DNA of 42,003 nt from Candidatus Micrarchaeota archaeon (GTDB taxonomy: Archaea > Micrarchaeota > Micrarchaeia > Micrarchaeales > CABMGC01): NCBI GenBank assembly GCA_964550485.1, contig CAZJZM010000002.1, positions 1 through 42,003 of the forward strand, read 5' to 3'. Position numbers and translations under genes: made by a program. This document shows, piece by piece, positions 4,461 through 42,003 of the stretch. Every line of letters starts with the position of its first letter. Positions within the stretch are counted from its first letter, which is position 1. The notes beneath the pieces were generated by a model that saw only the letters and a program-made list of their open reading frames with translations, had not been told where the DNA came from and searched no databases.

Positions 4461-5660
4461 TCAGGAGCCGAAGACAATCTCCATCGCCTCCTTCACTACA
4501 ACCTCCTTCTTCGCGTCGGAGCTCAGCTTATCGAAAAGCGCAGAAGGATTCAATTTCAAGTCGTACTTGTTCTGCTTCAGCCTCTCAAGGAAGATGCCCA
4601 TGCCGTAATCCCTTATGGAGACGTTTTCCAGTACTCCGTTCCTGAGGTCTTCAGCCTCCTTCGAATCAGTTGTTTCTATTCCGGATTTTGTAATCTCCAC
4701 TATGGCATTCTTGGAATATGAATCCACAATGCCTTTTATCCCTACATCTACATTCCTAAAGCCGTCCTTCAATTTGCCTTCCAAGACAACCCTAATTATC
4801 GGTCTGTCGTGTCCCTCGTCCGCAACAGAGGCTATCTTGCCCTCTATAGCGCCGCTCACTTCCGCAGGGGACATTCCCTCAACGTCGATCTTGACCATGA
4901 TGAACTTGCGCGATTTTATCTTAATGAAAGAATGCTCATTATTTTTCGTATCATAGACAAAAAATCCTTTCTCTTCCTGCTCCCCTTCCCTCAACTGCGT
5001 CAGGACAGTGCTTCCAGGTATGAGAAATTTCTTGCCATGGCACTTCGCCTCTATCTTGCTGTGTATGTGGCCATCCACATAGAGATCAAATCCTGGAGGC
5101 AGCTCTTCCAGGCGGATAAAATCCTCGCTGAAGGGCAGGAACTCATATACCGATTGGTGAAAGAGGAACAAATTAAATGCTCCGACAGTAGGCTTCAGGT
5201 CCATCCTGTCCAACGTCTCTTTGAATCTCTCCTCCGCCGTACCTCCCACCCCATATACTACTACTCTTTCTCCGCCCTTCTCTACAGTTACCTTCGCCTG
5301 GTTGGCGTTAACCAACAAACCTGCAAGATTAAGCAGGTCCACCGGATCGACCTCGCCATCGCTCCTTCTTTCATGGGTTCCCGGTATTGCTACCACTGGG
5401 ATGTCGGTGTATCTTTCTCCCCTTCCTTCAAATCCTGAAACGTTGGCGGCAAATTTCTTTGACGAAAGACGTTTGAAAAGCGTTATCGCCTCTGCAATCA
5501 CCTCGGGCTTTGGATGTCTGTAGTCGAAGATGTCTCCCGCAATAACTATCATGTCGGCGTTCTGGCTCGCCAGCTCCAACGCCTCCTCCGTCTGCCTGAA
5601 GGCGTCTTCACGGAAGCGTTCGTAGCCTATGTGGAAATCCGCAAGAATAGCAATCTTCAT
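4461..5660 (-). CDS. mre11: DNA double-strand-break repair nuclease Mre11 (calcineurin-like metallophosphoesterase)
   Basis: N-terminus MKIAILADFHIG, then IAGDIFD, GTHE and GHIH phosphoesterase motifs. 399 aa. Confidence 0.8.
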   Translation of the reverse strand: MKIAILADFHIGYERFREDAFRQTEEALELASQNADMIVIAGDIFDYRHPKPEVIAEAITLFKRLSSKKFAANVSGFEGRGERYTDIPVVAIPGTHERRSDGEVDPVDLLNLAGLLVNANQAKVTVEKGGERVVVYGVGGTAEERFKETLDRMDLKPTVGAFNLFLFHQSVYEFLPFSEDFIRLEELPPGFDLYVDGHIHSKIEAKCHGKKFLIPGSTVLTQLREGEQEEKGFFVYDTKNNEHSFIKIKSRKFIMVKIDVEGMSPAEVSGAIEGKIASVADEGHDRPIIRVVLEGKLKDGFRNVDVGIKGIVDSYSKNAIVEITKSGIETTDSKEAEDLRNGVLENVSIRDYGMGIFLERLKQNKYDLKLNPSALFDKLSSDAKKEVVVKEAMEIVFGS

Positions 5661-5720
5661 TATAACATCTACTATACATGGCTCCCTACTTTTATAAATA
5701 CCGAGTGCAAAATCCAGAAT

Positions 5721-6584
5721 TCAGATTATTACGTAAAGGAGAATGTTGCCGAACAGGAGAGAAACTACCACGGCTATGAAAGCGAAAAAGGCAAGCGGCA
5801 CGCCGCTGGTGTAAAGGGGAATCTTCCTTCTCACGCCCCTTAGGTCCTGAATGAGCTTATTTGTCACCAGTCTTCCGAAATGCTTCGACTTCTTCGAGAA
5901 GAATTCCAAGTCACTCTTGCTCATGGCGTTTGTCGCGATCATGTCCTCATTGGTCAGCCTGCTTGCTGAGACGTAGGAAATCATCTGCCTGCTTATGGCC
6001 TTCTCAAAGATTATCGTGAGCGCGGAGGCAAGCGCGACTATAAGAATGAGAACCACAGCCACCAATCTTATCCCTGCAAAATACGAGATGAAAGCAAGCA
6101 ACAGGAGATAGGCAACAAACATTCCGAATGCCTGGTACAGTTTAGCCCTACTCAGCTCAGAGAGCCTAAGATACCCTCTGCTGTGCGCCCTTAGAAGATA
6201 GTAGACCACCATTCCCACAACGGCTGCATATCCTGTGGCTATGAATACCGAAAAGATAAAGGGGAATCCGAATTGCTGCACGTTGGACAGGATAGGCATC
6301 GGCTGCAGCGGAAGAAGAAGGCTTATGGTGGCAAACTCGAAGAAGTCTCCTGCTCCCACCAGCCCCTTTCTAAAGAGCACGTATCCCAAAGCGCCTATTA
6401 TCAACGCCATCAGAAGACTGACCTCCATCGTTGCGGTATCATAAGTCAAGGTCACAATGACGCCGATTATCAGGCTGGCATAGACGAAGACATCAGGGAC
6501 GTTTCTCTTGTTGAAGATGTCAAACATGGCGTATGCAAACGCTATAACTAGGAGTATTGCCACTCTCAGAAGGAAAGAAATCAT
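5721..6584 (-). CDS. A24-family prepilin/preflagellin peptidase (PibD/FlaK-like)
   Basis: Polytopic membrane protein. Asp in the first TM region (YAMFDIF) plus a GxGD-type motif (LVGAGDFFEF). 287 aa. Confidence 0.6.
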   Translation of the reverse strand: MISFLLRVAILLVIAFAYAMFDIFNKRNVPDVFVYASLIIGVIVTLTYDTATMEVSLLMALIIGALGYVLFRKGLVGAGDFFEFATISLLLPLQPMPILSNVQQFGFPFIFSVFIATGYAAVVGMVVYYLLRAHSRGYLRLSELSRAKLYQAFGMFVAYLLLLAFISYFAGIRLVAVVLILIVALASALTIIFEKAISRQMISYVSASRLTNEDMIATNAMSKSDLEFFSKKSKHFGRLVTNKLIQDLRGVRRKIPLYTSGVPLAFFAFIAVVVSLLFGNILLYVII

Positions 6585-6791
6585 TACGACACCAGTACAC
6601 TTTGAAGAAAAGATTTAAATAGCAATTGTTTCAATCAATATCATACAAAGTGTGGATAATGTCCTTAACCGCTAGATGGCAAATGTTTACGGCTACCATT
6701 AGATCAGTAGCTATAGCGGTCTTGAAGTGCAATTATAATCCCTCTCATTCTTCTGCCGCTTGCATCGCATAAATCTGTTTTGGTGTTTGAT

Positions 6792-7151
6792 ATGCAAGTG
6801 GCAAAAACTATAGTTAGAGAGGCGTCTGCGATGCAGAAGCCAGTTCAGATCAGCGAGAAGGAGCTAATCCTGCTTTCGGAGATAGGCCTGGAGGCGATCC
6901 CGACCGCGACAAGCTTCGTTGAGTACATAGCCGAGAAATACAGCCTCTCGGCAAGCGGGGTCTGGTACACGCTGAAAAAGCTTAAGGAGAAGAGGGTGGT
7001 GGATTTCACAGAAAGGGGCGAGGAAGACAAGCCCCTCTCGCTCACCGAATTCGGGCGGGGAACCGTAAGGAGGAAGATCTCGGAGTTCAACTTCAGGACT
7101 CCGGGCCTTCCGCGGCCTGGGATGCAGTTCGGGATAGGCGCTCAATTTTAA
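6792..7151 (+). CDS. winged-helix (MarR/TrmB-like) DNA-binding protein
   Basis: wHTH-like core (SFVEYIAEKYSLSASGVWYTLKKLKEKRVVDF). An ATG at 6792 is preferred over TTG 6780. The last 44 codons are duplicated downstream at 8530-8664. Confidence 0.55.
   Translation: MQVAKTIVREASAMQKPVQISEKELILLSEIGLEAIPTATSFVEYIAEKYSLSASGVWYTLKKLKEKRVVDFTERGEEDKPLSLTEFGRGTVRRKISEFNFRTPGLPRPGMQFGIGAQF
7018..7151 (+). repeat. direct repeat copy A (3' end of the wHTH gene)
   Basis: 134 nt align without gaps to 8531-8664. Long identical runs include gaattcgggcggggaaccgtaaggaggaaga and ctcggagttcaacttcaggactccgggccttcc. Confidence 0.9.
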
Positions 7152-7220
7152 GCTCCATTGACACACTTTTGACAGTAGGATATCAAAAGAGCTATATAAC
7201 TTGATATCCTAATATCAATC

Positions 7221-8510
7221 ATGGAGCTAAGCTTAATGGGGATGCAGAACCCCTGGTGGTACAACAGAGAGGCAATAACCAATGATGAAAAGGTAAAGCG
7301 AGTGCTAGCCTCGGGGGAAAGGCTCATCATAGAGCTTGAAGACAAAAACATGATAATGATAGGCCCCAGGCAACTCGGGAAAACAACGGCGTTGAAATAT
7401 GATATCTACAAAAAGATAATTAAGGAAGGAATTGATCCAAAGCGCATACTATACTACTCCTTCGACACCGCACGGGACTATGGCGTGATATCCGAAGTGA
7501 TATCGAGTTTTATAAAAGCAACCGCAGGAAGGAAATACCTATATCTCGACGAGGTAAGCTTTGTCGACGAATGGCAACGCGCCATCAAATTTCTGCTGGA
7601 CTCCAACGAGATGAAGGATGTCAGAGTATATGTCACAGGGTCTGCCTCCATTAATCTTAGGAAAGAGCTTTTCCCAGGCAGGGACATCATTTTAAAGGAA
7701 TTTATGCCTAGCTTCTTCGCGTCTTTTGTGCAATCTTTCGCATCCAAAGACCTTAAAAAGTTTGTAAAGGCAAACATGACGGGCAGCATTGAAGACGTAA
7801 TCGAGAGATCTGAGAAGGCAGTACCCTATTTCGATGAACTTGACAGGCTTTTCCATGTTTTTATGCAGACTGGAGGATTTCCACTCGCCGTATTTGATTA
7901 CTTCGCAGCGGGTTCGATAAGCGAAACGACATTTGATACGCATTGGAACGCCTTCCTCTCAGACATAAGCAAAGCGGAAAGGAGCGTGGAAACTTCAGTT
8001 GCAGTGATCCAGGAGCTTGTCAAAAGCTATAGCTCCAAGATAAACATGAGCAAGACCGCAAGAAACGCCGGAATACCCTCGCACGTTACCGCACGCGAGT
8101 ACATGGAACTCCTAAGAGAACTATTTGTAATCGGATATATTTTTCCAATTAGCGATAGGGGGCTACCTCTCTTCCGCAAGGAGAGGAAAGCATATTTCAC
8201 AGACCCTTTCTTTTTTACATTGTTCTCCAAAAAACTAAATATGCAAATAAACCTGGGGGAATCCAAAGTTGTGGAGGGCATTACGTATTCACATTTAGCG
8301 CACATCATGAAAAACATAGGATACAAATCAAATGGCAGGGAAATAGATTTTGCAAATAATGAAATCGCAGTCGAGGTTAAATGGCAGGAATCCGTAACAA
8401 AATCAGACATACCAAGATCAAACGCAAAAAACAACATTGTTCTAAGCAAATCGGACCGTGGGGAGGGGATAATACCCGTTTCAGTATTCCTTGCCTTATT
8501 GGATATCTAA
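7221..8510 (+). CDS. AAA+ ATPase of the COG1373 type (AAA_14 + DUF4143 nuclease-like C-terminal domain)
   Basis: Walker A GPRQLGKTT and Walker B YLYLDEV. C-terminal REIDF...IAVEVKW is a PD-(D/E)xK-like motif. 429 aa. Confidence 0.8.
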   Translation: MELSLMGMQNPWWYNREAITNDEKVKRVLASGERLIIELEDKNMIMIGPRQLGKTTALKYDIYKKIIKEGIDPKRILYYSFDTARDYGVISEVISSFIKATAGRKYLYLDEVSFVDEWQRAIKFLLDSNEMKDVRVYVTGSASINLRKELFPGRDIILKEFMPSFFASFVQSFASKDLKKFVKANMTGSIEDVIERSEKAVPYFDELDRLFHVFMQTGGFPLAVFDYFAAGSISETTFDTHWNAFLSDISKAERSVETSVAVIQELVKSYSSKINMSKTARNAGIPSHVTAREYMELLRELFVIGYIFPISDRGLPLFRKERKAYFTDPFFFTLFSKKLNMQINLGESKVVEGITYSHLAHIMKNIGYKSNGREIDFANNEIAVEVKWQESVTKSDIPRSNAKNNIVLSKSDRGEGIIPVSVFLALLDI

Positions 8511-8529
8511 CAATTCATTATTAAGTGGT

Positions 8530-8664
8530 AGCGAGGAAGACAAGCCCCTCTTGCCCATTGAATTCGGGCGGGGAACCGTAAGGAGGAAGACCTCGGAGTT
8601 CAACTTCAGGACTCCGGGCCTTCCACGGCCTGGAATACAGATAGGAATAGGTGCGCAGTTCTAG
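8530..8664 (+). pseudogene. orphan 3' fragment of a wHTH-gene paralog (direct repeat copy B)
   Basis: Reads in frame as SEEDKPLLPIEFGRGTVRRKTSEFNFRTPGLPRPGIQIGIGAQF followed by a stop. No start codon or N-terminal part lies upstream. Confidence 0.7.
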
Positions 8665-8829
8665 AATTGCAAATAATCTAATACTAGTACATCCGTTGTG
8701 CAATTTAGCAAAGCTTAAATACCATAGAAGGATAACTATTTACTAGATTATATGATATTCGCTGAACACCCAAATAGGAACACCAAAAACGATCTAACAA
8801 GCATTTCCAGAGGTACAAAAGCGGCGGCT

Positions 8830-9252
8830 ATGACTTTAGTTGCGGCTGTAATAATTCCACTTCTTGGGGCATGCACCGGGTCATCTCATCCATCAGAACG
8901 TTCGTCTACGAGCAACTCTTCATTTCTGCTTCTCTCAAACGGTTCACCTTCAATTCAGTTCCCCCCTACCTACACGCGTTCCTATCTGCCTATTATTCCA
9001 CACCAAAACGGCATATACCTCGGAGAGACAGACAAAGTTCGATACTGGATAATGGCAGAAAGACCAGTAGATGGCAAATGCACATCAGCCTTTGAAACCG
9101 CCGCAAACAGCAGTGATGTTAATAAAGTGAAACTTCCTGAGGTGGTTTTGGCTAGCCATAAGGGCCAAATAGAAAAGCTCAAGAGGGACACATGCAAAGA
9201 CGGAGATGAACTTATCGGGCCAGTATGGCAAACACTTCGACCAAGAACGTAG
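8830..9252 (+). CDS. hypothetical secreted protein with lipobox-like signal
   Basis: MTLVAAVIIPLLGAC at ATG 8830; the track ORF starts at 8752. Same strand as, and just upstream of, the giant surface-protein gene. No family recognised. Confidence 0.35.
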   Translation: MTLVAAVIIPLLGACTGSSHPSERSSTSNSSFLLLSNGSPSIQFPPTYTRSYLPIIPHQNGIYLGETDKVRYWIMAERPVDGKCTSAFETAANSSDVNKVKLPEVVLASHKGQIEKLKRDTCKDGDELIGPVWQTLRPRT

Positions 9253-9381
9253 GTATTATAGAGATTTGGGAAGTTATAGCATAAGAAATTAATATTCAGA
9301 AATATCAACCCAGCGCGCTTCCGATACCATAGTAACATTTTATAAGAGTTATCTTTCAAAGGTAAACGAGGTAAACCAAGC

Positions 9382-12300
9382 GTGTACTTTCTAACAGACA
9401 TTTGTGATGGTGGGGCAACGTCAATATTACACAAACACAAAAGCCTTTTCCGATTTTTACCACTTTTAATACTCTTTATCTCTGCAGGCAGCTCCAGCAC
9501 TGTTTTGGCACAAACAATACCATCTGCAGCGGCATTGTTGCATGTAGGTGTTGCAATAACAGCGCCAACCTCTTACATAGGCGCACTTATGCCACTTCCT
9601 TCGCTAGGCTCTCTTTCCACAACAACGACGAATATCGGCCCACTGCCCAACGCACAGGCAGTCCTGCAAGGAACCACAGACTCAGGAATTTCATTACAGG
9701 TATCATATGCTAACAGCGCTACCCAGGGCCCACAAGTAATATTCGACCTTTTTCCTCAAGGGGCTGGTAACGCGCAGGTCATTCCCAAAAACATATACAT
9801 ATCAGACCCAGGTGTAATGTCTACTTCAGTCGCAATCGGTTCAGGAACATTAACTGGGTTTGCAGTCTGTACGACCTGCGAATCTCCTTTCTTTGCAGGA
9901 GTAACCGTGGTTCCAGTCCCTGGCGGCTTCCAAGTAACCTACAACATCAACGGTGTGGTTACTTCAGAATTTAATTCATGGGGGCAGCCTGGTGTCACCC
10001 CTTCAGTTGGTAGCTTCTTTCAGCCTAGCGGCCAAGCAGTAGGAGGCGACTTTGTAAGTGGTGTAATGGGCGAGATCCAAGTGGCCGGATTCACAGTGGC
10101 TACAATGCCCAGCCCTCCTTCTATCACGTTCATACGCGTATGTACTGACCCATCCTGTAGCACTCCTATTCAAACATCCCAGCCGTATACGGCAGCAGTC
10201 TCCGGCACGTTCAGCGGCGGAACTGAAACCGATGTTGGCCAAGCTTATTACTCCCAAGTAACTATGCCTGGCCCCGGAACCATAACTCTTACTTCCTCCA
10301 CCGGCACAGCCACCATCACCATGGACTCTGACGGAACCATCACCACGGCATGGACTCCGGCCGCCGCTGGAGGAGCGATTGTATCACAACCTCAGGGCTC
10401 CTTTACTCCAGCCGGCAGTTCTGTAGCACAACCCATTCAGATAGGATATGCACCAGGATCGACGGATCTTGGGCCGATACAACCTGTCTACAGCACAGGC
10501 CCCGCACTTCAGGCCCCTTCCTGGGCTCAATCTCCTTGCACCGACGCCGATTGCCTTAATGCCCAGAGCGCGGTAAACAGCTGCTTTTTATATGGCTGCA
10601 GTCAAAATGATTTCCAGCAGGCCGTCAGTGGGTGTATAGATACAAGTGGTTGTAATATCGGAACGTCAGTAGCAGCAGGAACAGTAGGAACAACCCAATC
10701 GTCCGCAATCATCAACTACCTGGGTCCAGAAGAAGGTGAGACATATCCTGTTCCTCAAATGACCGAGGGAGACTACGAACAGCAGCTGGCTTCGCAGAAT
10801 GCAGCGGCATACTTGCAGAAGCAGGATCAGGAGCAAACTGAAGGAGAAATGGGACTTGCCGCATCAGGCTACGGACTGTTACTGAACTGCGCATTCGGAA
10901 AGGCGTCATCCTGCGTGATGGCAATTCCTGGAGCTGCCTTTGCGGCGGCATCTTATTATTATGCATATACCCAAGCATTCGCTCCAGGCGCAAGTCTGTT
11001 CAATGCTGCACTCTCCGCCCTGCAAGTTCCTACGCAGATCATTCAGGCTATAGGCACGGTCTTGGAAGTTCTTCCTTTCGCAACTACCGTAATATCCATA
11101 ATAGAAGGCCCTACAAAGGTTCAGGTTCCATTTCCAACAGTATATTTCAACACCGCATACAACACAATCCCACCAAACATAATCCTGACCAATAGCACAT
11201 TCTACAACTTCTCGCCGGTAGAATCAGTCTACAAGAACAACACCGCAGAGGCACCAAACTACCTAACCTGCCCGATAAACGCTTCGCCGCTGCGCCCCAC
11301 AACCGATCTCTACTTCTACGCGAACAAAAGCACACTGGATGCTGGAGACAAGTGCCTATCCAAGAACACCACCTTCACCTCTGCACTCTACGGCTTTACG
11401 ACCGACATTTCGGTACCTCCCCTTGACGAATTTATTCACATCCTGGTCGAGGCATTTACCGGAGGCTACATCACCGATGTGACCCAACTTCAGATCTCCA
11501 ACCCCGGAGTCCTCACCCTTCAAGACATAGGCTACTTCCCCAGCGTCGACGGACAGCTCTCAAACGGTTGGAACACGAGTTCCTACATCTTCGACCAGGT
11601 GCCATCAACGCCACAACATTCGATCTGGTCGTGGAACCTGGTGCTTGCCAACCTCTCAAACGCCAGTCTTCCAAAGAGTTCTCATCTCTACTTCCAACTA
11701 ATCAAAATCACCGAACCGGGACTCACCTATCCGCCCCCTCCAATCTACGTTGTCCCATGTCTCTACACCGGTCCTTATTTTGAACAGACAACCCTTGACA
11801 GCATCAGCCTCAACTACCTCCCATTCACCGAAACGCTGGAGAATTACTCCCCTATCAACTACAACTCCCAACCAAGGGCAATCTTCGACACAAAGATCTA
11901 CCCCTATCTTCTCTACAATTACCTCCTCTCCGAGAACAACTCCCAGCTGGCAAACCCAAACCTTAGTGGTATGAGTGAAGACGTCTACAGCCCGTGGAAC
12001 TACTACAATCCCGCAAACGCAGAGGACCAGTTCCCTGTCGATCTTCCAAGTGTGCTCTTCGCCAATTCCACCACACATAAAAATGACCTGATAACCCTCC
12101 CGCAAAACGGCATAGGGATTAATGTACAGGCCTTACAGACGCCTGTGCTCATATATGGACAGACCTTCGGGCAGGCCTCATTTACCACATTCATATCCGA
12201 CTCAATCCCCTTCAATCTTTTGATAACAGGCAGCACCTCTACCGGAGTGCCGTATAGCCAAAGCTTCCAGTCATCTACAACAACATTGAATCTAACCAGT

Positions 12301-15300
12301 TATGAACTGCCTCCAGGGAACTACAACTATACCGCCAGCACGACAAACTCAACTGCGATACAGTCCGCGTCTCTGCCTCAAGGCACCACCGTGCTGAAAC
12401 TGCCAACGGCGTCAGTGGCATACAACAGCACCAACCTGATAAACTTCATACAGTACTCCTCATCCTCCACAAACACAGGCGGAACCGGTGGTGAAGGTTC
12501 CCTCCTTCCCGCATCATATACCAACGTAGGTCCATCCGTCTCCTCTCTTTCCACTCAACCAATCACAAACCCAATTGCTATCGCCTCAACCATAAACAAT
12601 TACCTTTACGTGCTTTACTATAACAATAGTCTGGACAGTTATTCCATAGCCGTGATAAGGCTCTATCCCCACGGCACATACAACCCTACTCTGCCGCTTC
12701 CCACTTCCAATGTGACATGCGGCGGACCAGGTTCCTGGTCGATATCCGACTGCGGATCGACATGGAACTCTGAATGGGGGAATTACTGGGACCAGGTCAT
12801 AAACGAAGAGAACAACACCGCCTACGTCCTCAATACAATACCTGTTCCTGACAGTGTATCTAATTCTGGCACATCAGAATCCTTTACTCCATACAGCATC
12901 GCAGCGGACAACGACGGGGACCTCTTCATCTCCGGAGGCACCAATTCCAATACTAGTACAATTCTGCTTAAAATAAATGACGCCGTCGACTCAAACGGAG
13001 ACGTCTGTCTCAATTCTGCATCCTGCGACCAATTTTACTGGGGAAATCTTTCAGGCGTGCCTGGCAGGTTCACGGAGATCGCAGAATCGCCAATCTCCGG
13101 AACCGTGGACCTTGCTGATCCAAGTTCCGGCGCAATTGAGGTATTCGATGGCGAGAACCTGACGTACATTAAGACACTCCCTCTCACCTTCGACAATTAC
13201 ACCGCTGTGAGTGGTATCCCACAACCTTTCTCACAGCAGGCAAACGTCATGGTCCTCTCCGGAGACCTCAACATAACAAAGTGGCTGACCGATGTCGGCC
13301 TATTCGGAATCAAGAACCTTGCTTCCAATCCCAATTCTGATGTCACCGACCAGGAAGGATACCATCACCCACTCGCAATCACCGATGTCAACGGCTATAC
13401 CTACGTCCTTGACGACTGGTCCGGAAATGCGGAAGGAAACAATTTCAACATACTGATGCTGAGGATACTCTCGAACGGTACGAGCATCGACGTTCCTGTA
13501 AATCCATCATTGCTCAATGACGTTTCCATCCTTACTCCACGAGAAAAGGCTATAATCAACTTCGATTCGCAAGGCCTCCAGTTCGATTACCCTCCCTATG
13601 GAATAATACTCTCCGCAAACGTCAGCGGAATTAACTTCTGCTCGTCCACTTCCTGCAAATACAGCCAATCAGACATAAACAGTACCTACTATCCTACCGG
13701 TCCGGAGTTGAATCAGAGTTTCATATACAACCAACATTCCCTCTCCAATTCCCCTGAGATAGGCTTCTCGGTATCGACAGATGGGCAGATGTCAACTTTC
13801 ATTCCTCAAGGAAGCAACAATTTCAAGTACGGAGAATTACTCTTTATGGACCTTAATCCGGTGAACTACACCGGAACGATATCAGGCCTTCCTCCACACG
13901 AATGCTATCTGTCTGTAGACTCGCCAACCTGCGAGGCCTACGACATCGACAGCATAACCCCTCCAATCTATGCAACAGGCGATATATTCAAATATCTGGA
14001 AAACCGCGGTTCGCAGAGTGCGCTGAGTTACACTGTCCAGTACAACAGTCAATTTGCAACATCCAACACCCCTAACTCCGGTCTGAACCAGACCTGCATA
14101 GGTCAACTTTCCAATTTCTCTACGCCAACTTCCTGTTACTCGGCAGGCGCAGAAAACACAATACCATACACATACAACATAACCTCAGCCATTCAGGGAA
14201 ACATCCTTCAAGGAATTGCGTCTCAACAATCCCAGTCAGCAGCCGCCTCCTCAGCCTCCCTCTACTCCATCCTTCAGAGTGTAGTACAGACTCTCGCAGA
14301 GCACATGAACATAATCCATGGACAGCCATTCCTCGGGAACGCTGGAGAATATCTCAACGCTTCCTACCTCTTTCTCAGTACCACATCATCCACTGGCATA
14401 TCGGCCAATACAACCAAATTGTTGGAAAGCCAGATCTCCCTGGTAAACGAACAGGAAAACATCATCATAAACGAGACCAAGATAATGGACCAAGGAGGAA
14501 ATCAGGCAGAGATCAACTCCGAGCTGCAAACCCTTGGTGCCCAGTCAGGTTCATTCGACAGTGCATCTACTGATTCCTCATTGCAAACCCTCGTGGCCCA
14601 AAACGCAACAAACAACACCAAAGCTATGACCGAAACGCTGCAAACCACCGCGGCCCTGGAAACCGCAAACAACACCAAGGCAATCAACTCAACGCTGCAA
14701 ACCCTCGAGGCACTGGCAGCCGCAAACGACACCACAGTGCTGAACGAGACAAAGATATACTTTAACCAGTTGCTGATTTTCGATGTGGAGAAGGACATCG
14801 AACTCCAGGAATTAAGCACTCTAAGTTCTGCTCCGGTAATTACCGGACCCGCAACCGCCAATTCCTCTGAAATAAACCCTCCAATAACAAAGCTTACTTC
14901 GCTCATCTCCGGGCAGGCGATAGTCGCATACGAATATCATTACACCACATTCCAGTGGTGGGGGCCGTTCATCACCATCACTCCGCAATGGAACTGCCCA
15001 TTCTGGGGCTTCCTGCCGTTCGTAGGACCTGTCTACGACCATTACACAACATACGCCTACTCGTTAACGCCCTTCACGATGTCAACCGCACTGCCGACGA
15101 CCATCCAGGGAGGTCCTACCTACCTCCTCCCAGTAAACAGCCAGACCAACTCAAGTTACTACCTTCCAACCCTTGCAGACACGGGTCTTTACCTGAGTCA
15201 GCACATTCTCTTCAACCTTACAAGCGACAGGAGTTTCGGGAGGATCTATGTCGCCAACTCTGGACTACAGAGCAACAACTTTGAGATTCTCAACGCAACG

Positions 15301-16605
15301 CAGCAAAACCGTTACATAATACAGACTGCGCATGTGGGTAACTCCATGTCATACGAGGCAATATCAACAAACGCCATAGGCCCGAACTACGGCAGCCAAT
15401 ACTCAGGCGCGGGAATCCAGGCGACCGACGTACCCTCAAGTTTCCTCTACAATGAGACCCTCCTTACGCCTCCATTTGTAACCAATTACGTGACTCCAAC
15501 GGAATACACAACAGCCCTTTACAGTGACCGGCTCTATCTCTACCTGCCTGAACTCCTAGGCTACCAACGATTGGTCTATGCATTTACGGACGACTTCAAT
15601 AACACAATCTACGCACCTCTGGACGTGGACATAGTCAGGACCACAAGCCTCCTGCTCAACGCGACTCCAGTTGTCAACGTGACCAACACCAACAAGACCA
15701 CCCTGTTCATAACCGGAAGGGCCGGCGAATTGTCATACAACGGCTTCTTCCCCAATCTAAACGGCACAGCAACCTTCATTCCGCTCCCGAACGCCAGTGT
15801 CTACCTCTACTACAACCACAACATAAATTATGTGGGCCTTAACACAGAACAGGATCAGCTCTGCGCCTTCGGAAACCCTTCCTATCCCTACAACACCACT
15901 CCATTCCCGTCCAATTGCACCCTGGCCAATCCAAACTACATCGGAAAGACCCAGGATGCAGGAAACATCAACTACAACCCCCAGTACAATTCCTCAGGCT
16001 TCTGCGCTCCGCCTCCGAACAGTCTGATCAAGAGCACAATAGACTGCAACATCTACGGCGAGGACAATTTCAGCAACCGCATAACCGCATCATGCCCGAC
16101 AGGCGCAAACAACAATCCAAGTTACTGTATCCCCCTATATCTCAACGGAAGTGGTATCTGCACCACCCAACTCGGACTCATAGGCATAGTCAAGACCGAT
16201 TCGGCAGGAGCCTTCAACCTGACTATGAATGCCTGCGGCACCGGCCAGCACAACATCATCGGCCAGTACTACGGCGATTCGATGCAGTTTGCGACTGCCG
16301 ACCAGAACGCGCTCAACCAGAGCGCCGATTCACTTAGCAAAAAACTGGAGGAACTCAATCAAAACGCAGGCGATCCCCAATTCCAAGTTCTGAACTACCA
16401 CTGGTCTCCAAACGTTTCATACTCCCCGTCCTTCCAGTCTGGTTCATTCGCACTCAGCTTCGGAGTCGTCTCCATTTCACTCCTGATCCTGACGATAGTC
16501 ACAATCGCGGCAATACTCCTCATTCACCACCATCGCAACTCCCAAAAATTGAAAAAGAGAAACTCTAGGAAACCCAAAAGAAAGAGAAGGAAACAATCCA
16601 AGTAA
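9382..16605 (+). CDS. giant cell-surface protein (signal peptide, Cys-rich and beta-rich regions, 19-aa repeats, C-terminal TM anchor with Lys/Arg tail)
   Basis: Uninterrupted 2407-codon ORF with a GTG start. N-terminal signal (FRFLPLLILFISAGSSSTVLA-Q). Dozens of N-x-S/T sequons. C-terminal helix VVSISLLILTIVTIAAILLI followed by KKRNSRKPKRKRRKQSK. Confidence 0.8.
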   Translation: MYFLTDICDGGATSILHKHKSLFRFLPLLILFISAGSSSTVLAQTIPSAAALLHVGVAITAPTSYIGALMPLPSLGSLSTTTTNIGPLPNAQAVLQGTTDSGISLQVSYANSATQGPQVIFDLFPQGAGNAQVIPKNIYISDPGVMSTSVAIGSGTLTGFAVCTTCESPFFAGVTVVPVPGGFQVTYNINGVVTSEFNSWGQPGVTPSVGSFFQPSGQAVGGDFVSGVMGEIQVAGFTVATMPSPPSITFIRVCTDPSCSTPIQTSQPYTAAVSGTFSGGTETDVGQAYYSQVTMPGPGTITLTSSTGTATITMDSDGTITTAWTPAAAGGAIVSQPQGSFTPAGSSVAQPIQIGYAPGSTDLGPIQPVYSTGPALQAPSWAQSPCTDADCLNAQSAVNSCFLYGCSQNDFQQAVSGCIDTSGCNIGTSVAAGTVGTTQSSAIINYLGPEEGETYPVPQMTEGDYEQQLASQNAAAYLQKQDQEQTEGEMGLAASGYGLLLNCAFGKASSCVMAIPGAAFAAASYYYAYTQAFAPGASLFNAALSALQVPTQIIQAIGTVLEVLPFATTVISIIEGPTKVQVPFPTVYFNTAYNTIPPNIILTNSTFYNFSPVESVYKNNTAEAPNYLTCPINASPLRPTTDLYFYANKSTLDAGDKCLSKNTTFTSALYGFTTDISVPPLDEFIHILVEAFTGGYITDVTQLQISNPGVLTLQDIGYFPSVDGQLSNGWNTSSYIFDQVPSTPQHSIWSWNLVLANLSNASLPKSSHLYFQLIKITEPGLTYPPPPIYVVPCLYTGPYFEQTTLDSISLNYLPFTETLENYSPINYNSQPRAIFDTKIYPYLLYNYLLSENNSQLANPNLSGMSEDVYSPWNYYNPANAEDQFPVDLPSVLFANSTTHKNDLITLPQNGIGINVQALQTPVLIYGQTFGQASFTTFISDSIPFNLLITGSTSTGVPYSQSFQSSTTTLNLTSYELPPGNYNYTASTTNSTAIQSASLPQGTTVLKLPTASVAYNSTNLINFIQYSSSSTNTGGTGGEGSLLPASYTNVGPSVSSLSTQPITNPIAIASTINNYLYVLYYNNSLDSYSIAVIRLYPHGTYNPTLPLPTSNVTCGGPGSWSISDCGSTWNSEWGNYWDQVINEENNTAYVLNTIPVPDSVSNSGTSESFTPYSIAADNDGDLFISGGTNSNTSTILLKINDAVDSNGDVCLNSASCDQFYWGNLSGVPGRFTEIAESPISGTVDLADPSSGAIEVFDGENLTYIKTLPLTFDNYTAVSGIPQPFSQQANVMVLSGDLNITKWLTDVGLFGIKNLASNPNSDVTDQEGYHHPLAITDVNGYTYVLDDWSGNAEGNNFNILMLRILSNGTSIDVPVNPSLLNDVSILTPREKAIINFDSQGLQFDYPPYGIILSANVSGINFCSSTSCKYSQSDINSTYYPTGPELNQSFIYNQHSLSNSPEIGFSVSTDGQMSTFIPQGSNNFKYGELLFMDLNPVNYTGTISGLPPHECYLSVDSPTCEAYDIDSITPPIYATGDIFKYLENRGSQSALSYTVQYNSQFATSNTPNSGLNQTCIGQLSNFSTPTSCYSAGAENTIPYTYNITSAIQGNILQGIASQQSQSAAASSASLYSILQSVVQTLAEHMNIIHGQPFLGNAGEYLNASYLFLSTTSSTGISANTTKLLESQISLVNEQENIIINETKIMDQGGNQAEINSELQTLGAQSGSFDSASTDSSLQTLVAQNATNNTKAMTETLQTTAALETANNTKAINSTLQTLEALAAANDTTVLNETKIYFNQLLIFDVEKDIELQELSTLSSAPVITGPATANSSEINPPITKLTSLISGQAIVAYEYHYTTFQWWGPFITITPQWNCPFWGFLPFVGPVYDHYTTYAYSLTPFTMSTALPTTIQGGPTYLLPVNSQTNSSYYLPTLADTGLYLSQHILFNLTSDRSFGRIYVANSGLQSNNFEILNATQQNRYIIQTAHVGNSMSYEAISTNAIGPNYGSQYSGAGIQATDVPSSFLYNETLLTPPFVTNYVTPTEYTTALYSDRLYLYLPELLGYQRLVYAFTDDFNNTIYAPLDVDIVRTTSLLLNATPVVNVTNTNKTTLFITGRAGELSYNGFFPNLNGTATFIPLPNASVYLYYNHNINYVGLNTEQDQLCAFGNPSYPYNTTPFPSNCTLANPNYIGKTQDAGNINYNPQYNSSGFCAPPPNSLIKSTIDCNIYGEDNFSNRITASCPTGANNNPSYCIPLYLNGSGICTTQLGLIGIVKTDSAGAFNLTMNACGTGQHNIIGQYYGDSMQFATADQNALNQSADSLSKKLEELNQNAGDPQFQVLNYHWSPNVSYSPSFQSGSFALSFGVVSISLLILTIVTIAAILLIHHHRNSQKLKKRNSRKPKRKRRKQSK
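14521..14750 (+). repeat. four tandem ~57-nt (19-aa) repeats inside the giant gene
   Basis: (c/t)tgcaaacc recurs at 14524, 14582, 14638 and 14695. The peptide units are ELQTLGAQSGSFDSASTDS, SLQTLVAQNATNNTKAMTE, TLQTTAALETANNTKAINS and TLQTLEALAAANDTTVLNE. Confidence 0.8.
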
Positions 16606-20375: not shown

Positions 20376-22520
20376 TTGGAAGATAACAACCCGGCAATAA
20401 CCACAATGCCGGAACAAGCACCTCCTCCTCCGCCTCCGCCTGCTGTTTCTCCACAACCTGGAACTCCGATTCAAGGGAAGCGCTCTCCGACGATTTCTAT
20501 TGCAAGCGTAGTAGTCATAATACTGGTAATAGGAGCGGCCGCATACTACCTGACTTCTGGTCACTCCTCATCCAACAATGATCTTATTTACGCCCAATTT
20601 CTAAAATCCTACGTCTCGAAAAGCCCACTGAATCTGACCGCTTTCCAGCCCATCTCCACTGAAAAGCTCAAGTCCCTCCCGCAGTTCTATCTCAACTACA
20701 GCGGCAAAATCGTAGTCTCGTCAAATTCAACGCTGCTGGGCGGCCTGACATTAAGCATCCCCTTCACCGCTGGCTATGAGAAATACGACAACGACAGCAG
20801 GGCCACACTGAACCTCAAGGATGTTCCTCTTTTTGGCAACCTCAGTATCATAGCAATCAACTCGAGCAGCGGCATTTACAGCTGTACATCCAACGCCACC
20901 TCGCTCCTTGGCCTCTACACAAGGCCGCCTGGCTATACCTGCACAAAGACTAACACCAGCGAGTTCTCATCTCTCATCAACGCAACAACCTCGTTCTCAA
21001 GCAACATCGTCGTGGATTCACTTTCACTCCAGTCATACCAGAAGCAGAGCTGCCTCCTAACCACAATGACAGGCACAGTCTCCCCAGGATCAAAGCAGCA
21101 CCTCAGCAACATCTCAAGCACTCTCGGAAGCCTGGCCGGCTCTGTATCCACCATAGATATGAATTTCACAGGCTGCTATTCCACTGACTACTATGTACCT
21201 TTCAATCTTTCCGGAGTGGCCTCGAGCTCGAACACGAGCATAACCGTCACATTGCACGAGACAGGAATCGGCACGCAGATAAACCAAACCAAGGTAACCA
21301 CACTTCCAGGTCCGATAGTAAACGCTACGGTAATTCCCACATCAAGTTCCGCACCAAGCTCCACATCAAGCTCCACGCCCATATCCCTTAAAGCCAGTCC
21401 AGGGGGCTGCCAGGTCTACAGGCCGAATGGCCCTGGCTCGACCACATACATCAACACTGAAGGAGTTTGCGACAACGGGTCTCCGCAGTACGTTGCACAG
21501 TTCAACAGGCAGAGCAGCTATGTAAGCACAGCACCTGTTCCTTCCGGTCCTCTTCAAACCATAAGCGTCTGGGTTTATCCTAAACAAACAAATCAATCAA
21601 GCTACGGATCCGGGGTCGGAGGCACAATCTTAGAAAGCAACCAAAACGGCAACTTCTCAGGCTATGCCTTGGGAATCCAAAATTCAGGAAAGGTGTGGTG
21701 GTGGCCTCAACCCGGCCAGGACAGATACAGCACAGGCACAGTTCCGTTAAACACTTGGACCAACATAGTACTGGCCTATAACAAAACAAAAGCCAACATC
21801 TATCTTAACGGCGTTCTGGACAGCTCACAGACAGCTTCCCCTCCTAACCCTGCCTCATTCACAAAAATAGGCGCCAAGTCGTGGATTACAGGGAACTTCT
21901 CCGGTCTGATGGCAAATCTACAGATCTACAACACCACCCTAACATCTCCACAGATAGCGGCCCTTTATAGCGGAGGAATAGGCGCCGATCCGGAATTCTT
22001 GAATAATCTGGTCGGCTGGTGGCCGCTCAACGGCAATGCCAATGACTACTCCGGAAACCTCAACAACGGCCTATCCACTGCCTTATCTTATGTATCAAAC
22101 TACAACTACACAGAAGCTTCCTACGGTGGCGGCTCCACAAACACAGCGTCCGGACCCGCACCTCCTTCTACCAATCTTAACACCTGCATAGCGTCCCCCG
22201 GATTCACCTGTCAGATCGTTTCATACGATTCTCTTTCCAACCAACTGGGTGTCACAATTTACCAGAACTCCGGAACCGAATGGGTAAACGCCACTTTTGT
22301 ATATGTAAACGAACCCCAAGAAGCCAGTGTACTATCTTCAGGCCTATCAGAACAGCTACTGGCTTCACAGCCGATATACAACAAGCTCCCTTCCCTAGCC
22401 AGCGGAACCAAACAGCTATTGCTCTTCTCCGCCTCATCCCCAGGCTACATCTGGGTATCCTACTCTACTGCCTCTTCCGGCGGGTCCACCATCCAAGCGC
22501 AGATAGCTTCAGTATCCTGA
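20376..22520 (+). CDS. membrane-anchored LamG (concanavalin-A-like lectin) domain surface protein
   Basis: TTG start 6 nt after GGAGG. Poly-Pro N-terminus and a single TM helix (ISIASVVVIILVIGAAAYYL). Sequon-rich ectodomain. LamG_3-like block around 21500-21990 (ISVWVYP...WTNIVLAYNKTKANIYLNG...GLMANLQIYNTTLTSPQIAALY). Followed by the LVGWWPLNGNANDYSGN motif. Confidence 0.75.
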   Translation: MEDNNPAITTMPEQAPPPPPPPAVSPQPGTPIQGKRSPTISIASVVVIILVIGAAAYYLTSGHSSSNNDLIYAQFLKSYVSKSPLNLTAFQPISTEKLKSLPQFYLNYSGKIVVSSNSTLLGGLTLSIPFTAGYEKYDNDSRATLNLKDVPLFGNLSIIAINSSSGIYSCTSNATSLLGLYTRPPGYTCTKTNTSEFSSLINATTSFSSNIVVDSLSLQSYQKQSCLLTTMTGTVSPGSKQHLSNISSTLGSLAGSVSTIDMNFTGCYSTDYYVPFNLSGVASSSNTSITVTLHETGIGTQINQTKVTTLPGPIVNATVIPTSSSAPSSTSSSTPISLKASPGGCQVYRPNGPGSTTYINTEGVCDNGSPQYVAQFNRQSSYVSTAPVPSGPLQTISVWVYPKQTNQSSYGSGVGGTILESNQNGNFSGYALGIQNSGKVWWWPQPGQDRYSTGTVPLNTWTNIVLAYNKTKANIYLNGVLDSSQTASPPNPASFTKIGAKSWITGNFSGLMANLQIYNTTLTSPQIAALYSGGIGADPEFLNNLVGWWPLNGNANDYSGNLNNGLSTALSYVSNYNYTEASYGGGSTNTASGPAPPSTNLNTCIASPGFTCQIVSYDSLSNQLGVTIYQNSGTEWVNATFVYVNEPQEASVLSSGLSEQLLASQPIYNKLPSLASGTKQLLLFSASSPGYIWVSYSTASSGGSTIQAQIASVS

Positions 22521-25780: not shown

Positions 25781-28759
25781 TTGTTTTCAGTTCAGGAAAC
25801 CGCTAAACCGAAAAAACTTCAGGTCGCAATAGATTTTCTCTCTTCCTATGGCATAGCCATACTCATAGTTCTCATAGCCGTGGCGATAGCATACCAGGTC
25901 AGCATAGGCACCACCAACCTCTTCTCGTCGCAATGCACAGCCAATCCCGGATTCTCCTGCGGCTACTACAGCATAAACAACAAAGGCGTACTGACGCTGG
26001 GCCTTGCGCAGGCGACAGGAGCGGCGATAATAGTGAACGGCGTGGCGTGCTCCACCCAGGCAACCAGCAAAGGCCTTCCCGCATACGGCAACCTTTATGT
26101 TACAAGCGCCTTCAATTACTATCCATATCCCTATTCTCCGTATCCTGGGGTGACGGTACCGAGCGGCGGACAGAAAAACTTTGATCTTTACTGCTACGGA
26201 CCGACAGGAATAGAAACGACACCTTCGGCCGGAAGCTCGTTTGTAGGCTACGTCTGGATCAACTACACAATCCAAAATACAAAAATACAGAGCACGCAGC
26301 AGATTGCAGCAGTCAGCCTCGAATCCATCTCCAACGGCATCGTATCAGGAGCAATACCTGTATACTCATTAACGGAGAACACAATACCCCCAGGTGCAGG
26401 AACCGTTTCACCTGGCAGCGGAAACTTCCTCTCTGGGAATATAATATCACTTTCCCAGACTGCAAACTCGGGATATGGATTCGTTTCATGGACCTGCACC
26501 GGCGCAGGTTGCTATTCAGGAACAAACCCGATTCCAAATCTCTTCATCCTCTCCAACACGGTCGAGACCGCCACATTCAATGTAATATACACCTTCACTG
26601 AGAACGCAGTTCCTCCTACATACGGAACTGCTTTGCCTGGCAATGGCAACTATATCTCCGGAAACATGATCTCAATATCTGCAACACCAATCGGCAACAA
26701 TGTCTTTGCAAGCTGGACCTGCACCGGAACCGGCTGCTACAGCGGTCCAAGTTCCTCATACACATTTGCCATAGCAAGCAATACTGTAGAGACAGCAAAC
26801 TTCCAACCACCTCCAACATACACCTTCACTGAGAATGCATTTCCTTCTGGAGGAGGTACCCTCGGCGGCTCTGGCAATGGCAACTACGTTTCCGGAAACT
26901 TGATCTCATTCTCCGAGACTCCAAATTCCGGTTATACCTTCACCAGCTGGACCTGCACCGGAACCGGCTGCTACTCAGGAACAAATACAGTCGCGAACAT
27001 CATAATTGCATCAAACACAGTCGAGACAGCAAACTTCCAATGCGGTGGAAGTTTCATCTTCAACACGGCAGGCAGCAACACCCTTACGGTTCCATCAGGC
27101 TGCAACGGAGCAACCCTCCAGCTCTGGGGCGCCGGCGGGGGCGGCGGCAACGTTTACGCCGGAGCTGGCAGCGGTTACATAACAGGCGCTATGCCTGTAA
27201 TACCAGGGAGCACCCTTTATATTTATGTCGGCGGCGCCGGCACCTACAGTGGAGCTGCAGGCACCAACGGCGGCGGCGCAGGTGAATATAGCGGCGCCAG
27301 CGGCAACGGCGGCGCCGGCGGCTGCTCAGCAGTCAGCACTTCAGGCGGCACATGGAACAGCGTAAGCCTGAATGCCAATATATTCATAGTAGCAGCCGGC
27401 GGTGGACAAGGCGGCGCCAGCGGAGTAGGCGGTGCCGGAGGAGGCACAATCGGCTCCAACGGAGCAGGTTCCTCCTACGGTTCTGGAGGCACCCAGTCCG
27501 CCGGCGGTGCCTCGACCGTAATTTCTGGTTCTGCATTCCAAGGAGGCAACGGTAACAACGACTGGGGCGCCGGCGGCTGCGGCTACTACGGCGGCGGCAG
27601 CGCCAACGGCGGCGGAGGAGGCGGAGGCTCCAGCTGGTACAATACCGGTGCTGTTTCCAGTGTAACCGACACAGGAGGCAGCGGCCAGAATGCGGGCAAT
27701 CCTTCGGGAACCATAGGTAAAGGCGGTGCAGTCTCCGGAAACGGCAACGCAGGAGAAGTCATTGTGACATGGATAGCCGCTCCAGCAAATGCTGCCACAT
27801 ATTCATTCACAGACAACGCAGTGCCTTCTTCGGAAGGAACTGTTTCTTCAAGCAGCGGCAATTATCTCTCTGGAAGTGTTGTTCCATTCTCTGCAACTCC
27901 AAATGCCGGCTACGCTTTCGCCAGTTGGAGCTGCTCTGGAACAGGCTGCTATTCAGGACCCAATGCAGTTGCAAATGTTGTAATAACATCAAACACAGTC
28001 GAGACAGCAAACTTCCAATGCGGTGGAAGTTTCATCTTCAGCACCGCAGGCAGCAACACCTTTACACTTCCAGCAACCTGCGGCCATGCAAACCTCCAAC
28101 TTTGGGGAGCCGGCGGGGGCAGCTATCCTGGGTCCAACGGCGCAGGCGGCGGTTACATAACGGGGAATATAGCAGTAACGCCTGGAAACATTCTTTATAT
28201 TTATGTCGGCGGCGCCGGCGGAGGCTATCTTAGCGGCGGTCCAGGCACCAACGGCGGCGGCGCCGGCGCAGAAGGCGCCGGAGGATGTTCTGCGGTCAGT
28301 ACTTCTAGTGGAACATGGAACTCGGTAGGACTTAATGCAAACATACTAATAGTTGCTGCAGGAGGTGCAGGAGGATCAGGTTACGGCTCTATCAACGGCG
28401 CAGGCGGCGGCACAACCGGCTCAAACGGAGGAACAGGACACGGAGGAACACAGTCTGCTGGAGGCACAGCGGGTTCAGGCGGCGTTGCGGGTTCCGCATG
28501 GCAAGGCGGCAGCAGCAGCATCTACGGCGGCGGCGGCTGCGGCTACTTCGGTGGTGGCTCCGGCAATAACGGCGGCGGCGGCGGAGGAGGCTCCAGCTGG
28601 TACAGCACCAGTATTGTTTCCAGCGTAACTGATCTAGGGGGCAACGGAATAAATCCTGGAGGAAATACTGTAAGTGGATACTCTGCCCCTGTAGGGCAAG
28701 GTGGTGCAGGCACTGGAAACGGCAACTCAGGAGAAGTGATAATCACATCACAAAACTGA
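25781..28759 (+). CDS. type IV pilin-like (class III signal peptide) protein fused to 4 InlB-B-repeat-like modules and 2 glycine-rich (polyglycine) domains
   Basis: TTG start directly after the rps2 stop. N-terminus KPKKLQVAIDFLSSYGIAILIVLIAVAI plus C..NPGFSC. Repeat modules at about 26359-27040 and 27773-28018. Gly-rich domains at 27041-27772 and 28019-28759. Confidence 0.8.
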   Translation: MFSVQETAKPKKLQVAIDFLSSYGIAILIVLIAVAIAYQVSIGTTNLFSSQCTANPGFSCGYYSINNKGVLTLGLAQATGAAIIVNGVACSTQATSKGLPAYGNLYVTSAFNYYPYPYSPYPGVTVPSGGQKNFDLYCYGPTGIETTPSAGSSFVGYVWINYTIQNTKIQSTQQIAAVSLESISNGIVSGAIPVYSLTENTIPPGAGTVSPGSGNFLSGNIISLSQTANSGYGFVSWTCTGAGCYSGTNPIPNLFILSNTVETATFNVIYTFTENAVPPTYGTALPGNGNYISGNMISISATPIGNNVFASWTCTGTGCYSGPSSSYTFAIASNTVETANFQPPPTYTFTENAFPSGGGTLGGSGNGNYVSGNLISFSETPNSGYTFTSWTCTGTGCYSGTNTVANIIIASNTVETANFQCGGSFIFNTAGSNTLTVPSGCNGATLQLWGAGGGGGNVYAGAGSGYITGAMPVIPGSTLYIYVGGAGTYSGAAGTNGGGAGEYSGASGNGGAGGCSAVSTSGGTWNSVSLNANIFIVAAGGGQGGASGVGGAGGGTIGSNGAGSSYGSGGTQSAGGASTVISGSAFQGGNGNNDWGAGGCGYYGGGSANGGGGGGGSSWYNTGAVSSVTDTGGSGQNAGNPSGTIGKGGAVSGNGNAGEVIVTWIAAPANAATYSFTDNAVPSSEGTVSSSSGNYLSGSVVPFSATPNAGYAFASWSCSGTGCYSGPNAVANVVITSNTVETANFQCGGSFIFSTAGSNTFTLPATCGHANLQLWGAGGGSYPGSNGAGGGYITGNIAVTPGNILYIYVGGAGGGYLSGGPGTNGGGAGAEGAGGCSAVSTSSGTWNSVGLNANILIVAAGGAGGSGYGSINGAGGGTTGSNGGTGHGGTQSAGGTAGSGGVAGSAWQGGSSSIYGGGGCGYFGGGSGNNGGGGGGGSSWYSTSIVSSVTDLGGNGINPGGNTVSGYSAPVGQGGAGTGNGNSGEVIITSQN
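27009..28759 (+). repeat. intragenic tandem duplication, period 978 nt (B-repeat end + Gly-rich domain)
   Basis: A 54-nt identical run (catcaaacacagtcgagacagcaaacttccaatgcggtggaagtttcatcttca) occurs at 27009 and 27987. Colinear protein similarity continues through both units. Confidence 0.85.
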
Positions 28760-41930: not shown

Positions 41931-42003
41931 TAGTCCCTATCGGATTCGAACCGATGTTTGCGGGTCCAAAGCCCGCCGTGCTTGGCCGCTACACAAAGGG
42001 ACT
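41931..42003 (-). tRNA. tRNA-Gln (anticodon TTG), no intron
   Basis: Reverse complement folds as acceptor AGTCCCT/AGGGACT, D arm GTGT-AGCGGCCAA-GCAC, anticodon arm GCGGG-CTTTGGA-CCCGC, T arm ATCGG-TTCGAAT-CCGAT, discriminator A. The 5' end coincides with the window edge. Confidence 0.85.

Follow-up and report, generated by a model that had tools for sequence, protein, structure and literature searches.

Background

Large surface proteins of the Micrarchaeota have received a passing mention in the literature (PMC5498576). In Candidatus Micrarchaeum harzensis the surface-layer (S-layer) protein SLP_Mh was demonstrated by experiment. It is that organism's most abundant protein, has a mass of ~101 kDa, carries PF05123 at its N-terminus and lacks a C-terminal anchor. 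The authors of that study suggest that a further, stalk-like protein bears a transmembrane (TM) segment, and give 40-200 kDa for published S-layer proteins and 20-25 nm for the pseudoperiplasm of a micrarchaeon (bioRxiv 10.1101/2021.04.28.441871). Here we analyze a giant surface protein gene, P0001, located at positions 9382-16605 (forward strand) of a contig (C2) from a Candidatus Micrarchaeota (DPANN) metagenome-assembled genome (MAG) of 1.37 Mb. The whole stretch of 42,003 nucleotides is referred to as the window. The P0001 protein has in common with SLP_Mh that it belongs to the same phylum and is a secreted, apparently N-glycosylated surface protein, whereas it is ~2.5 times larger, is TM-anchored and has no PF05123 domain.

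Three further described systems are relevant for comparison. Micrarchaeon Mia14 encodes four very large strain-specific surface proteins (MIA14_0152, MIA14_0331, MIA14_0793 and MIA14_0946, together ~2.5% of the genome) with beta-propeller (Kelch/YVTN), PKD and CARDB modules, and these were proposed to act in host contact (PMC5498576). They also belong to the Micrarchaeota, but neither PKD nor CARDB was detected in P0001 and the likeness is one of description. In Pacearchaeota and Woesearchaeota, fam00969 comprises extracellular murein-like lytic-transglycosylase proteins of up to 3,000 amino acids (aa), proposed to attach to and cut the wall of another cell (Castelle et al. 2021, PMC8204110). 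Compared by description, these too are giant extracellular DPANN proteins, and relatives of P0001 carry SLT-type modules; they come from other DPANN phyla, however, and P0001 itself has no transglycosylase. Finally, the M. mazei surface-layer protein 1L0Q is described, as far as it is cited in PMC5498576, as a tandem YVTN beta-propeller plus PKD (Jing et al. 2002). P0001 is likewise an archaeal cell-surface protein with YVTN-type propeller repeats, but the 1L0Q chain is 391 aa long without a C-terminal TM in the solved part, P0001 has no PKD, and two of its modules (A and C, see below) have no counterpart there.

Results and discussion

P0001 is a 2,407-aa protein with an N-terminal signal peptide, a head without recognizable relatives, a long body rich in glycosylation sites, and a C-terminal TM helix with a basic tail. 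We lean towards reading it as a type-I (N-out, C-terminal TM) surface glycoprotein, in which a glycan-coated stalk would hold out a bare and exchangeable tip for binding a partner cell. Its function is probably that of a host-contact adhesin rather than of an S-layer protein, a view suggested by the fact that a tip free of sugar sites replaces the wall-cutting enzymes carried by its relatives.

Distribution of sequons

The protein contains 61 N-glycosylation sequons (N-x-S/T) against 37.9 +/- 5.2 in shuffles of the whole protein, and their layout is clearly bipartite: all 61 lie within aa 604-2344 and none in aa 1-600. For the body (aa 601-2350) 34.1 +/- 5.0 sequons are expected, and the observed number was reached in 0 of 3,000 shuffles. 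In the head of P0001 (aa 47-600) there are 0 sequons where 3.6 are expected (p 0.017), and in the head of its paralogue P0005 this is 0 against 7.6 (p 5e-5). An earlier note on this DNA, made from the letters alone, had described a C-terminally anchored, sequon-enriched surface protein. That description holds; 'sequon-saturated', as the same note put it, overstates the case for a protein whose first 600 residues are free of sequons. This difference between a sequon-free N-terminus and a rich body is more informative than the overall sequon count. Density amounts to 2.5 per 100 aa for the whole protein (near the top of the family range of 0.6-3.2) and 3.5 for the body, and 47 of the 61 sequons are kept in position in P0005.

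Other proteins encoded in the window put these numbers in perspective. Cytoplasmic proteins carry ~0-0.5 sequons per 100 aa, near expectation, with the highest value (0.96) for glnA. A secreted LamG surface protein (20376-22520) is enriched, with 23 sequons against 13.7 (3.2 per 100 aa, z 2.9), and a 992-aa pilin-like adhesin (25781-28759) is depleted, with 1 where its own composition predicts 17.6 (z -4.6). Sequons thus appear to be shaped in both directions on the surface proteins of this organism, as would be expected if an N-glycosylation system is active.

Following the suggestion in the earlier note to look for the oligosaccharyltransferase AglB, we searched the genome with the Pfam STT3 profile, which gave no AglB match. 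Recognizable STT3-type genes occur in 18 of 41 relatives, and the STT3 protein of one relative (37 bits) matches an 899-aa frame on contig C7 (G000:C7:13215-15911; L040:1498-4194) with 44-58% identity. This frame, which has an N-terminal YEPDDFYHF motif, is a divergent AglB candidate and not proof of the enzyme. In relative G009 (contig C24) an AglB-like gene (L044:1783-4530) lies directly upstream of the giant gene (5182-11178), sharing its strand and separated from it by ~650 nucleotides (nt), and in relative G010 such a gene is found ~5 kb from the giant gene.

Two heads on one body

The genome holds three genes of this family: P0001, the 2,607-aa P0005 on contig C5, and a 2,045-aa copy on contig C1. 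P0001 and P0005 share 77% homology at the DNA level, and this homology starts abruptly at window position 10845 (aa 489). Upstream of this point the heads of the two are unrelated, but both start with a signal peptide of their own and both are free of sequons (BLASTP between the two heads gives E above 0.2). An exhaustive HMMER search of the P0001 head against 1.84 billion representative proteins yielded 0 matches, and a six-frame search of 61 genomes returned the self-match only.

Both genes lie on one chromosome, on the same strand and ~41 kb apart, because contigs C2 and C5, neighbours in this genome, overlap exactly over 55 nt (window 41949-42003 equals G000:C5:1-55). An origin of P0001 and P0005 from a mixed bin was considered and is rejected by this overlap. 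P0005 is also found on a 91.9-kb contig in an independent ENA assembly. The ratio dN/dS between the paralogues is 0.13 in modules A, B and C and 0.25 in the stalk (dS ~0.9); the bodies are under purifying selection. The third copy (L010:2631-8765, on G000:C1), whose contig may belong to the same organism as C2 and C5, carries an SLT_3 domain at aa 344-455 (31.8 bits) inside module A, with poly-Thr/Pro linkers on either side.

Gene model

The open reading frame (ORF) of P0001 runs from a GTG at 9382 over 2,407 codons plus stop without an internal stop, and a whole-genome search likewise counted 0 internal stops in it. A TATA-like box (tttataa, 9339-9345, + strand), a putative promoter, lies ~37-43 nt upstream of the GTG, and a Shine-Dalgarno-like GAGGT (9368-9372, + strand) sits 9 nt before the start codon, which supports GTG 9382 as the start; both motifs were read directly. 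The uninterrupted ORF, its GTG and the TATA-like box had all been listed before and are evident in the sequence; the Sec-type signal, the Cys-rich stretch, the 19-aa repeats and the terminal TM helix with its basic tail could be located as well.

The public gene call at this locus, by contrast, starts at an internal ATG at 10759 (M460) and gives a protein of 1,948 aa, so that the 459-aa head is dropped. The call for P0005 is shortened in the same way (2,097 of 2,607 aa), and because public gene calls truncate such heads, they are missing from protein databases. It might be argued that the ORF is a pseudogene, a product of chimeric assembly, or over-extended, with M460 as the true start and an untranslated head. 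Apart from the public call, the lower GC3 of the head (0.43, against 0.56-0.65 in the body), its weaker coding score relative to the body and the fragmented state of the MAG (306 contigs, 77% complete) point in that direction. Nonetheless, the frame is free of stops over its full length, the 459 codons upstream of M460 are open, and their frame scores best of six. The N-terminus at M460 is acidic, and only the GTG model yields a proper signal peptide, next to the TATA-like and Shine-Dalgarno-like motifs. For these reasons the full-length GTG model is favoured. Since P0005 is laid out in the same way, with a clear signal peptide of its own, and recurs in the independent assembly, we regard an artefact as extremely unlikely.

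Domain layout

All features described here are on the forward strand of the window. The protein has a mass of ~250 kDa before glycans and is low in charge (K+R 2.8%, D+E 6.7%), with S, T and N abundant. Its signal peptide (aa 1-44, 9382-9513) consists of an n-region HKHKSLFR and an h-region FLPLLILFISAG with a putative cleavage site after LAQ (LAQ/T); the hydrophobic core at aa 25-46 has a Kyte-Doolittle (KD) value of 1.87. The orphan head (aa 45-488, 9514-10845) includes a six-Cys stretch at aa 384-424 (10531-10653) and ends in an acidic, Gln-rich linker.

This linker precedes a Gly/Ala-rich hydrophobic segment (aa 489-580, 10846-11121) reading GLAASGYGLLLNCAFGKASSC...IIQAIGTVLEVLPFATTVISII, with a KD peak of 1.91 at aa 553-575. 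It is common to P0001 and its linked paralogue P0005 only, does not recur in the family, and is the fastest-evolving part of the body (dN/dS 0.45). An interpretation as relic signal peptide or as true TM is unsupported, the hydrophobicity being too weak for a TM span. Cytoplasmic connections have been seen between ARMAN and Thermoplasmatales cells, and P0001 could be imagined as a membrane-fusion or bridging protein behind them: the head would bind a wall-less host, whose membrane would take up aa 489-580, and the helical repeats would pull the two cells into apposition. The order of parts (head, acidic linker, hydrophobic segment, large ectodomain, helical repeats, TM, basic tail) would fit, and so would the family topology, by which aa 489-580 cannot truly span the membrane. 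However, the segment is present in two paralogues only, evolves fast, and is of marginal hydrophobicity (below threshold in P0005); fold similarity to fusogens was not found, and the stalk repeats gave no heptad signal. Fusion therefore strikes us as very improbable.

Structure predictions were made using AlphaFold2 (AF2) with family alignments, with a mean pLDDT of 54 for aa 585-1625 and 58 for aa 1600-2407. Module A (aa 590-920, 11149-12141), recognized by BLAST conservation across the family and by the motifs YLTCP and SYIF...W.W, matches no known family, and its model is poor (pLDDT < 50). It is followed by a variable slot, v1 (aa 921-1060, 12142-12561), of ~140 Ser/Thr-rich residues without family match, which is absent in P0005.

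Module B (aa 1061-1600, 12562-14181) contains the family motif HHPLAITDxxGxxYVLDxW and is predicted to be all-beta (pLDDT 70-90 at aa ~1057-1534). The earlier note had weakly proposed an NHL/YVTN-type beta-propeller from the motifs YLYVLYYNN, DGDLFISGG, GAIEVFDG and YTYVLDDWSG, which lie at aa 1073-1348 (nt ~12598-13425). Foldseek matches of the model to YncE (3vgz/3vh0, E 4e-6, prob 1.0, target TM 0.44-0.46), and further to SOQ1 NHL, PAL (to E ~1e-5), Sec12 and cd1 nitrite reductase, strengthen that call, together with a match of the family profile to the YVTN propeller of M. mazei 1L0Q (E 5e-5, 24 bits, ~50 residues per matching stretch). A YVTN-type beta-propeller fold of module B is thus supported by the predicted model. 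With Pfam, scanned at E up to 1, P0001 gave only a sub-threshold SBBP match here (10.1 bits against a cut-off of 20.5). Within the module, an N-Y-T sequon (aa 1495-1497, window 13864-13872) is invariant in 28 of 28 aligned family members, with a likewise invariant pair of Cys residues (aa 1508 and 1517) after it.

Since the HHPLAITDxxGxxYVLDxW block is invariant or near-invariant in the family, the propeller might also be an enzyme of the metal-dependent lyase, lactonase or cyclase type (HH...D...D.W residues), which would make P0001 an enzyme on the cell surface with polymers of the host or the environment as its substrates. Catalytic propellers are indeed among the fold matches (PAL 3fvz, glutaminyl cyclase 2iwa and the zinc-binding AztD), and a weak profile match to the gluconolactonase PpgL was obtained (E 0.93). 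The best fold and sequence matches, however, are non-catalytic YVTN or NHL propellers (YncE, 1L0Q), and no catalytic family was significant in Pfam or NCBIfam, making an enzymatic role very unlikely. The absence of an enzyme motif, remarked upon before, extends to the family libraries: neither the protein nor tiles of it gave anything above threshold in Pfam, NCBIfam or PHROGs, and a search of PDB sequences gave a filamin match at chance level only (E 0.26).

The helical stalk region (aa 1601-1835, 14182-14886) is predicted with low confidence to form helices at aa ~1627-1811. It includes four 19-residue LQT units (aa 1710-1785, 14509-14736; detected by TRF as a 57-nt period) with one sequon per unit. 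LQT occurs at aa 1715, 1734, 1753 and 1772, an exact period of 19 aa, and the spacing is the same in P0005. Module C (aa 1836-2350, 14887-16431) is predicted to consist of Cys-containing beta-sandwich domains and is the most conserved part of the family, with pLDDT 84-96 at aa ~2060-2145 and 2248-2310; module C plus stalk had no significant fold match in PDB or viral structures. The C-terminal TM helix (aa ~2356-2381, 16447-16524) has a KD value of 2.89, is helical in the AF2 model and is present in every family member. It is followed by KKRNSRKPKRKRRKQSK, and the polybasic tail (aa 2382-2407, HHHRNSQKLKKRNSRKPKRKRRKQSK) occupies 16525-16602. By the positive-inside rule the tail would be cytoplasmic and the body outside.

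A scaffold family of the order

A search with the C-terminal 566 aa retrieved 46 proteins of 1.4-4.1 kaa, all unnamed or annotated as 'hypothetical'. BLAST maps of ~50 members show one invariant order of signal peptide, modules A, B and C, and TM, with 25-45% identity to the modules of P0001 and K+R of 2-4%; according to hydrophobicity maps all members have an N-terminal hydrophobic signal. Minimal members measure ~1,550-1,650 aa and lack the helical stalk region. In larger members additional sequence is found N-terminally, within A, B or C, or in the stretch that separates A from B. P0001 is like these relatives in the order of its modules, signal peptide, short tail and low charge, and differs from them by having no hydrolase insert, an orphan sequon-free head and the stalk of four 19-aa helical repeats.

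Module C is present in 46 of the 61 related genomes. The recurrence of giant, uncharacterized anchored proteins in small-genome archaea, as put forward earlier, is supported. In a phylum-wide sample of 201 genomes, each at least 80% complete, the order to which the window belongs has two large families, and module C was found in 27/35 genomes of one and 46/56 of the other (73 of 91 together), with marginal matches in 2/6 genomes of one further family and none in ~100 genomes of some 20 other families. The protein family is usually present in one copy per genome and, those marginal matches apart, is confined to a single order of the Micrarchaeota.

Homologues in the databases bear the names Micrarchaeaceae or Micrarchaeia. 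Two sets of database labels deviate: the 81.5-kb contig that holds one family locus (L026, DATLRT010000015.1) goes by the name of Candidatus Acidiferrales bacterium, and for some members (the P0037 cluster) the label reads Candidatus Marsarchaeota. Probably these are mis-binned or mislabelled Micrarchaeota DNA.

Cell-wall-hydrolase-type domains were found in 10 of the 46 database matches plus one paralogue of this genome. An SLT_3 (lysozyme-like) domain is placed inside module A in P0006 and P0008, and the A-to-B linker, which corresponds to slot v1 of P0001, holds SLT in P0016, NlpC/P60 in P0017 and M23 in P0043. Among the other members are some with PKD domains and some whose long cytoplasmic tail contains a DnaJ domain. 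In P0001, Pfam and NCBIfam revealed no SLT, NlpC/P60 or M23 domain. Because relatives hold hydrolases and other inserts, the scaffold can be seen as a carrier displaying variable modules outside the cell, and hydrolases in the variable slots suggest that these modules are presented to the envelope of another cell.

The main rival is a structural role in the envelope, with P0001 as membrane anchor or stalk of the S-layer, similar to SlaB (Sulfolobales) or tetrabrachion (Staphylothermus), or as the order's own lattice protein. Head-stalk-anchor adhesins and S-layer stalks such as trimeric autotransporter adhesins, SlaB and tetrabrachion combine a distal head, a non-heptad helical repeat stalk and a membrane anchor, as P0001 does; searches by sequence and by fold gave no similarity of P0001 to these, and its stalk counts four clear repeats only. 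A family that is near-universal and usually single-copy in the order would fit such a role, as would the C-terminal TM plus helical stalk, the YVTN propeller match to the M. mazei surface-layer protein, and the second, TM-bearing stalk protein suggested for the unanchored SLP_Mh (bioRxiv 10.1101/2021.04.28.441871). A Pfam scan found no PF05123 (S_layer_N) in P0001 (at E up to 1) or its paralogues. The domain was also undetected in this genome and in 61 related ones, a further point for the structural role, but the prefilter passed almost no candidates, so this may reflect its limited sensitivity and is not read as absence.

On the other hand, minimal members do without the stalk, which is therefore not the anchor element that defines the family. 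Lattice or anchor proteins do not typically have variable enzyme inserts or orphan heads that are swapped, and ~250 kDa before glycans exceeds the range published for S-layer proteins. Overall, we judge the structural role unlikely. P0001 is in any case not the known Micrarchaeota S-layer protein: 'S-layer-like' in that sense fails for a protein of 2,407 aa with a C-terminal TM and no PF05123, set against one of ~101 kDa without anchor, while the 'host-attachment' offered as its alternative in the earlier note stands as the best functional guess.

Taking P0001 as a host-contact adhesin, the following mechanism can be proposed. The protein would be exported by Sec, and its membrane-proximal body would be densely N-glycosylated by the divergent AglB, providing a shield and stiffening against acid and proteases. 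Module C plus a helix of ~185 residues (~27 nm if continuous) would raise propeller and head through or above the S-layer; protrusion is possible because this length is comparable to the 20-25 nm of the pseudoperiplasm, an argument of geometry and not evidence. The stalk may in addition oligomerize. The unglycosylated, disulfide-capable head of ~440 aa would bind a ligand on the partner or host cell, and P0005, with the same body and an unrelated head, would supply a second specificity. The scaffold tolerates insertions at fixed slots (N-terminal, within A, in the linker from A to B, and between B and C), and in P0001 these are filled by the orphan head and the four-repeat helical stalk instead of hydrolases.

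Several observations weigh against this reading. The head qualifies as a 'binding domain' by position, Cys content and sequon avoidance only, and it is precisely the part removed in the public gene call. Module A and the stalk are modelled by AF2 with low confidence. The AglB candidate scores 17.3 bits over the full STT3 profile, below the cut-off of 24.5, and has LWPDG where the canonical WWDYG is expected. As said, near-universal and mostly single-copy occurrence within the order would suit a structural envelope protein too.

A bolder version would take the whole scaffold family as the host-contact organelle of the order. Heads would then be exchangeable cassettes with their own signal peptide and start, swapped onto a glycan-shielded body and kept free of sequons for bare host recognition, in the manner of phage receptor-binding tips; the Gly/Ala-rich segment of the two paralogues could also engage the membranes of wall-less Thermoplasmatales. 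We consider this extension quite unlikely.

Genomic context

P0001 is surrounded in the window by archaeal housekeeping genes, among which Kae1, the Rpb3-type RpoD, ADP-forming acetyl-CoA synthetase and an A24 prepilin peptidase. Just upstream lies an ORF of 166 aa (window 8752-9252) with a lipobox-like LLGAC, for which co-expression with P0001 had been put forward. It is an orphan, absent from the other contigs of the genome; no homologue stands beside any paralogue or family member, and in 60 relatives there is 1 marginal match (E 0.004). We therefore rejected it as a partner of P0001. Neighbouring genes of family loci are conserved within sub-clades only, and at 13 loci no family-wide neighbour was seen.

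Conclusions

Summarizing, the analysis of P0001 adds three elements: a family variant without enzyme, a swap of heads between linked paralogues, and a sequon-free head on a sequon-rich body. One genome thereby carries two alternative orphan heads on a lineage-restricted scaffold, and the difference in sequons between body and heads is a statistical signature of a part that is meant to be bare.

To our knowledge, no Micrarchaeota adhesins have been identified so far. How DPANN archaea recognize and hold their hosts is an open question, for which the P0001 locus is a concrete and testable candidate. If the head does not bind hosts, the family is still a large, unannotated and near-universal envelope component of the order. 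If it does, the head would offer a handle on host range in an uncultivated group of symbionts.

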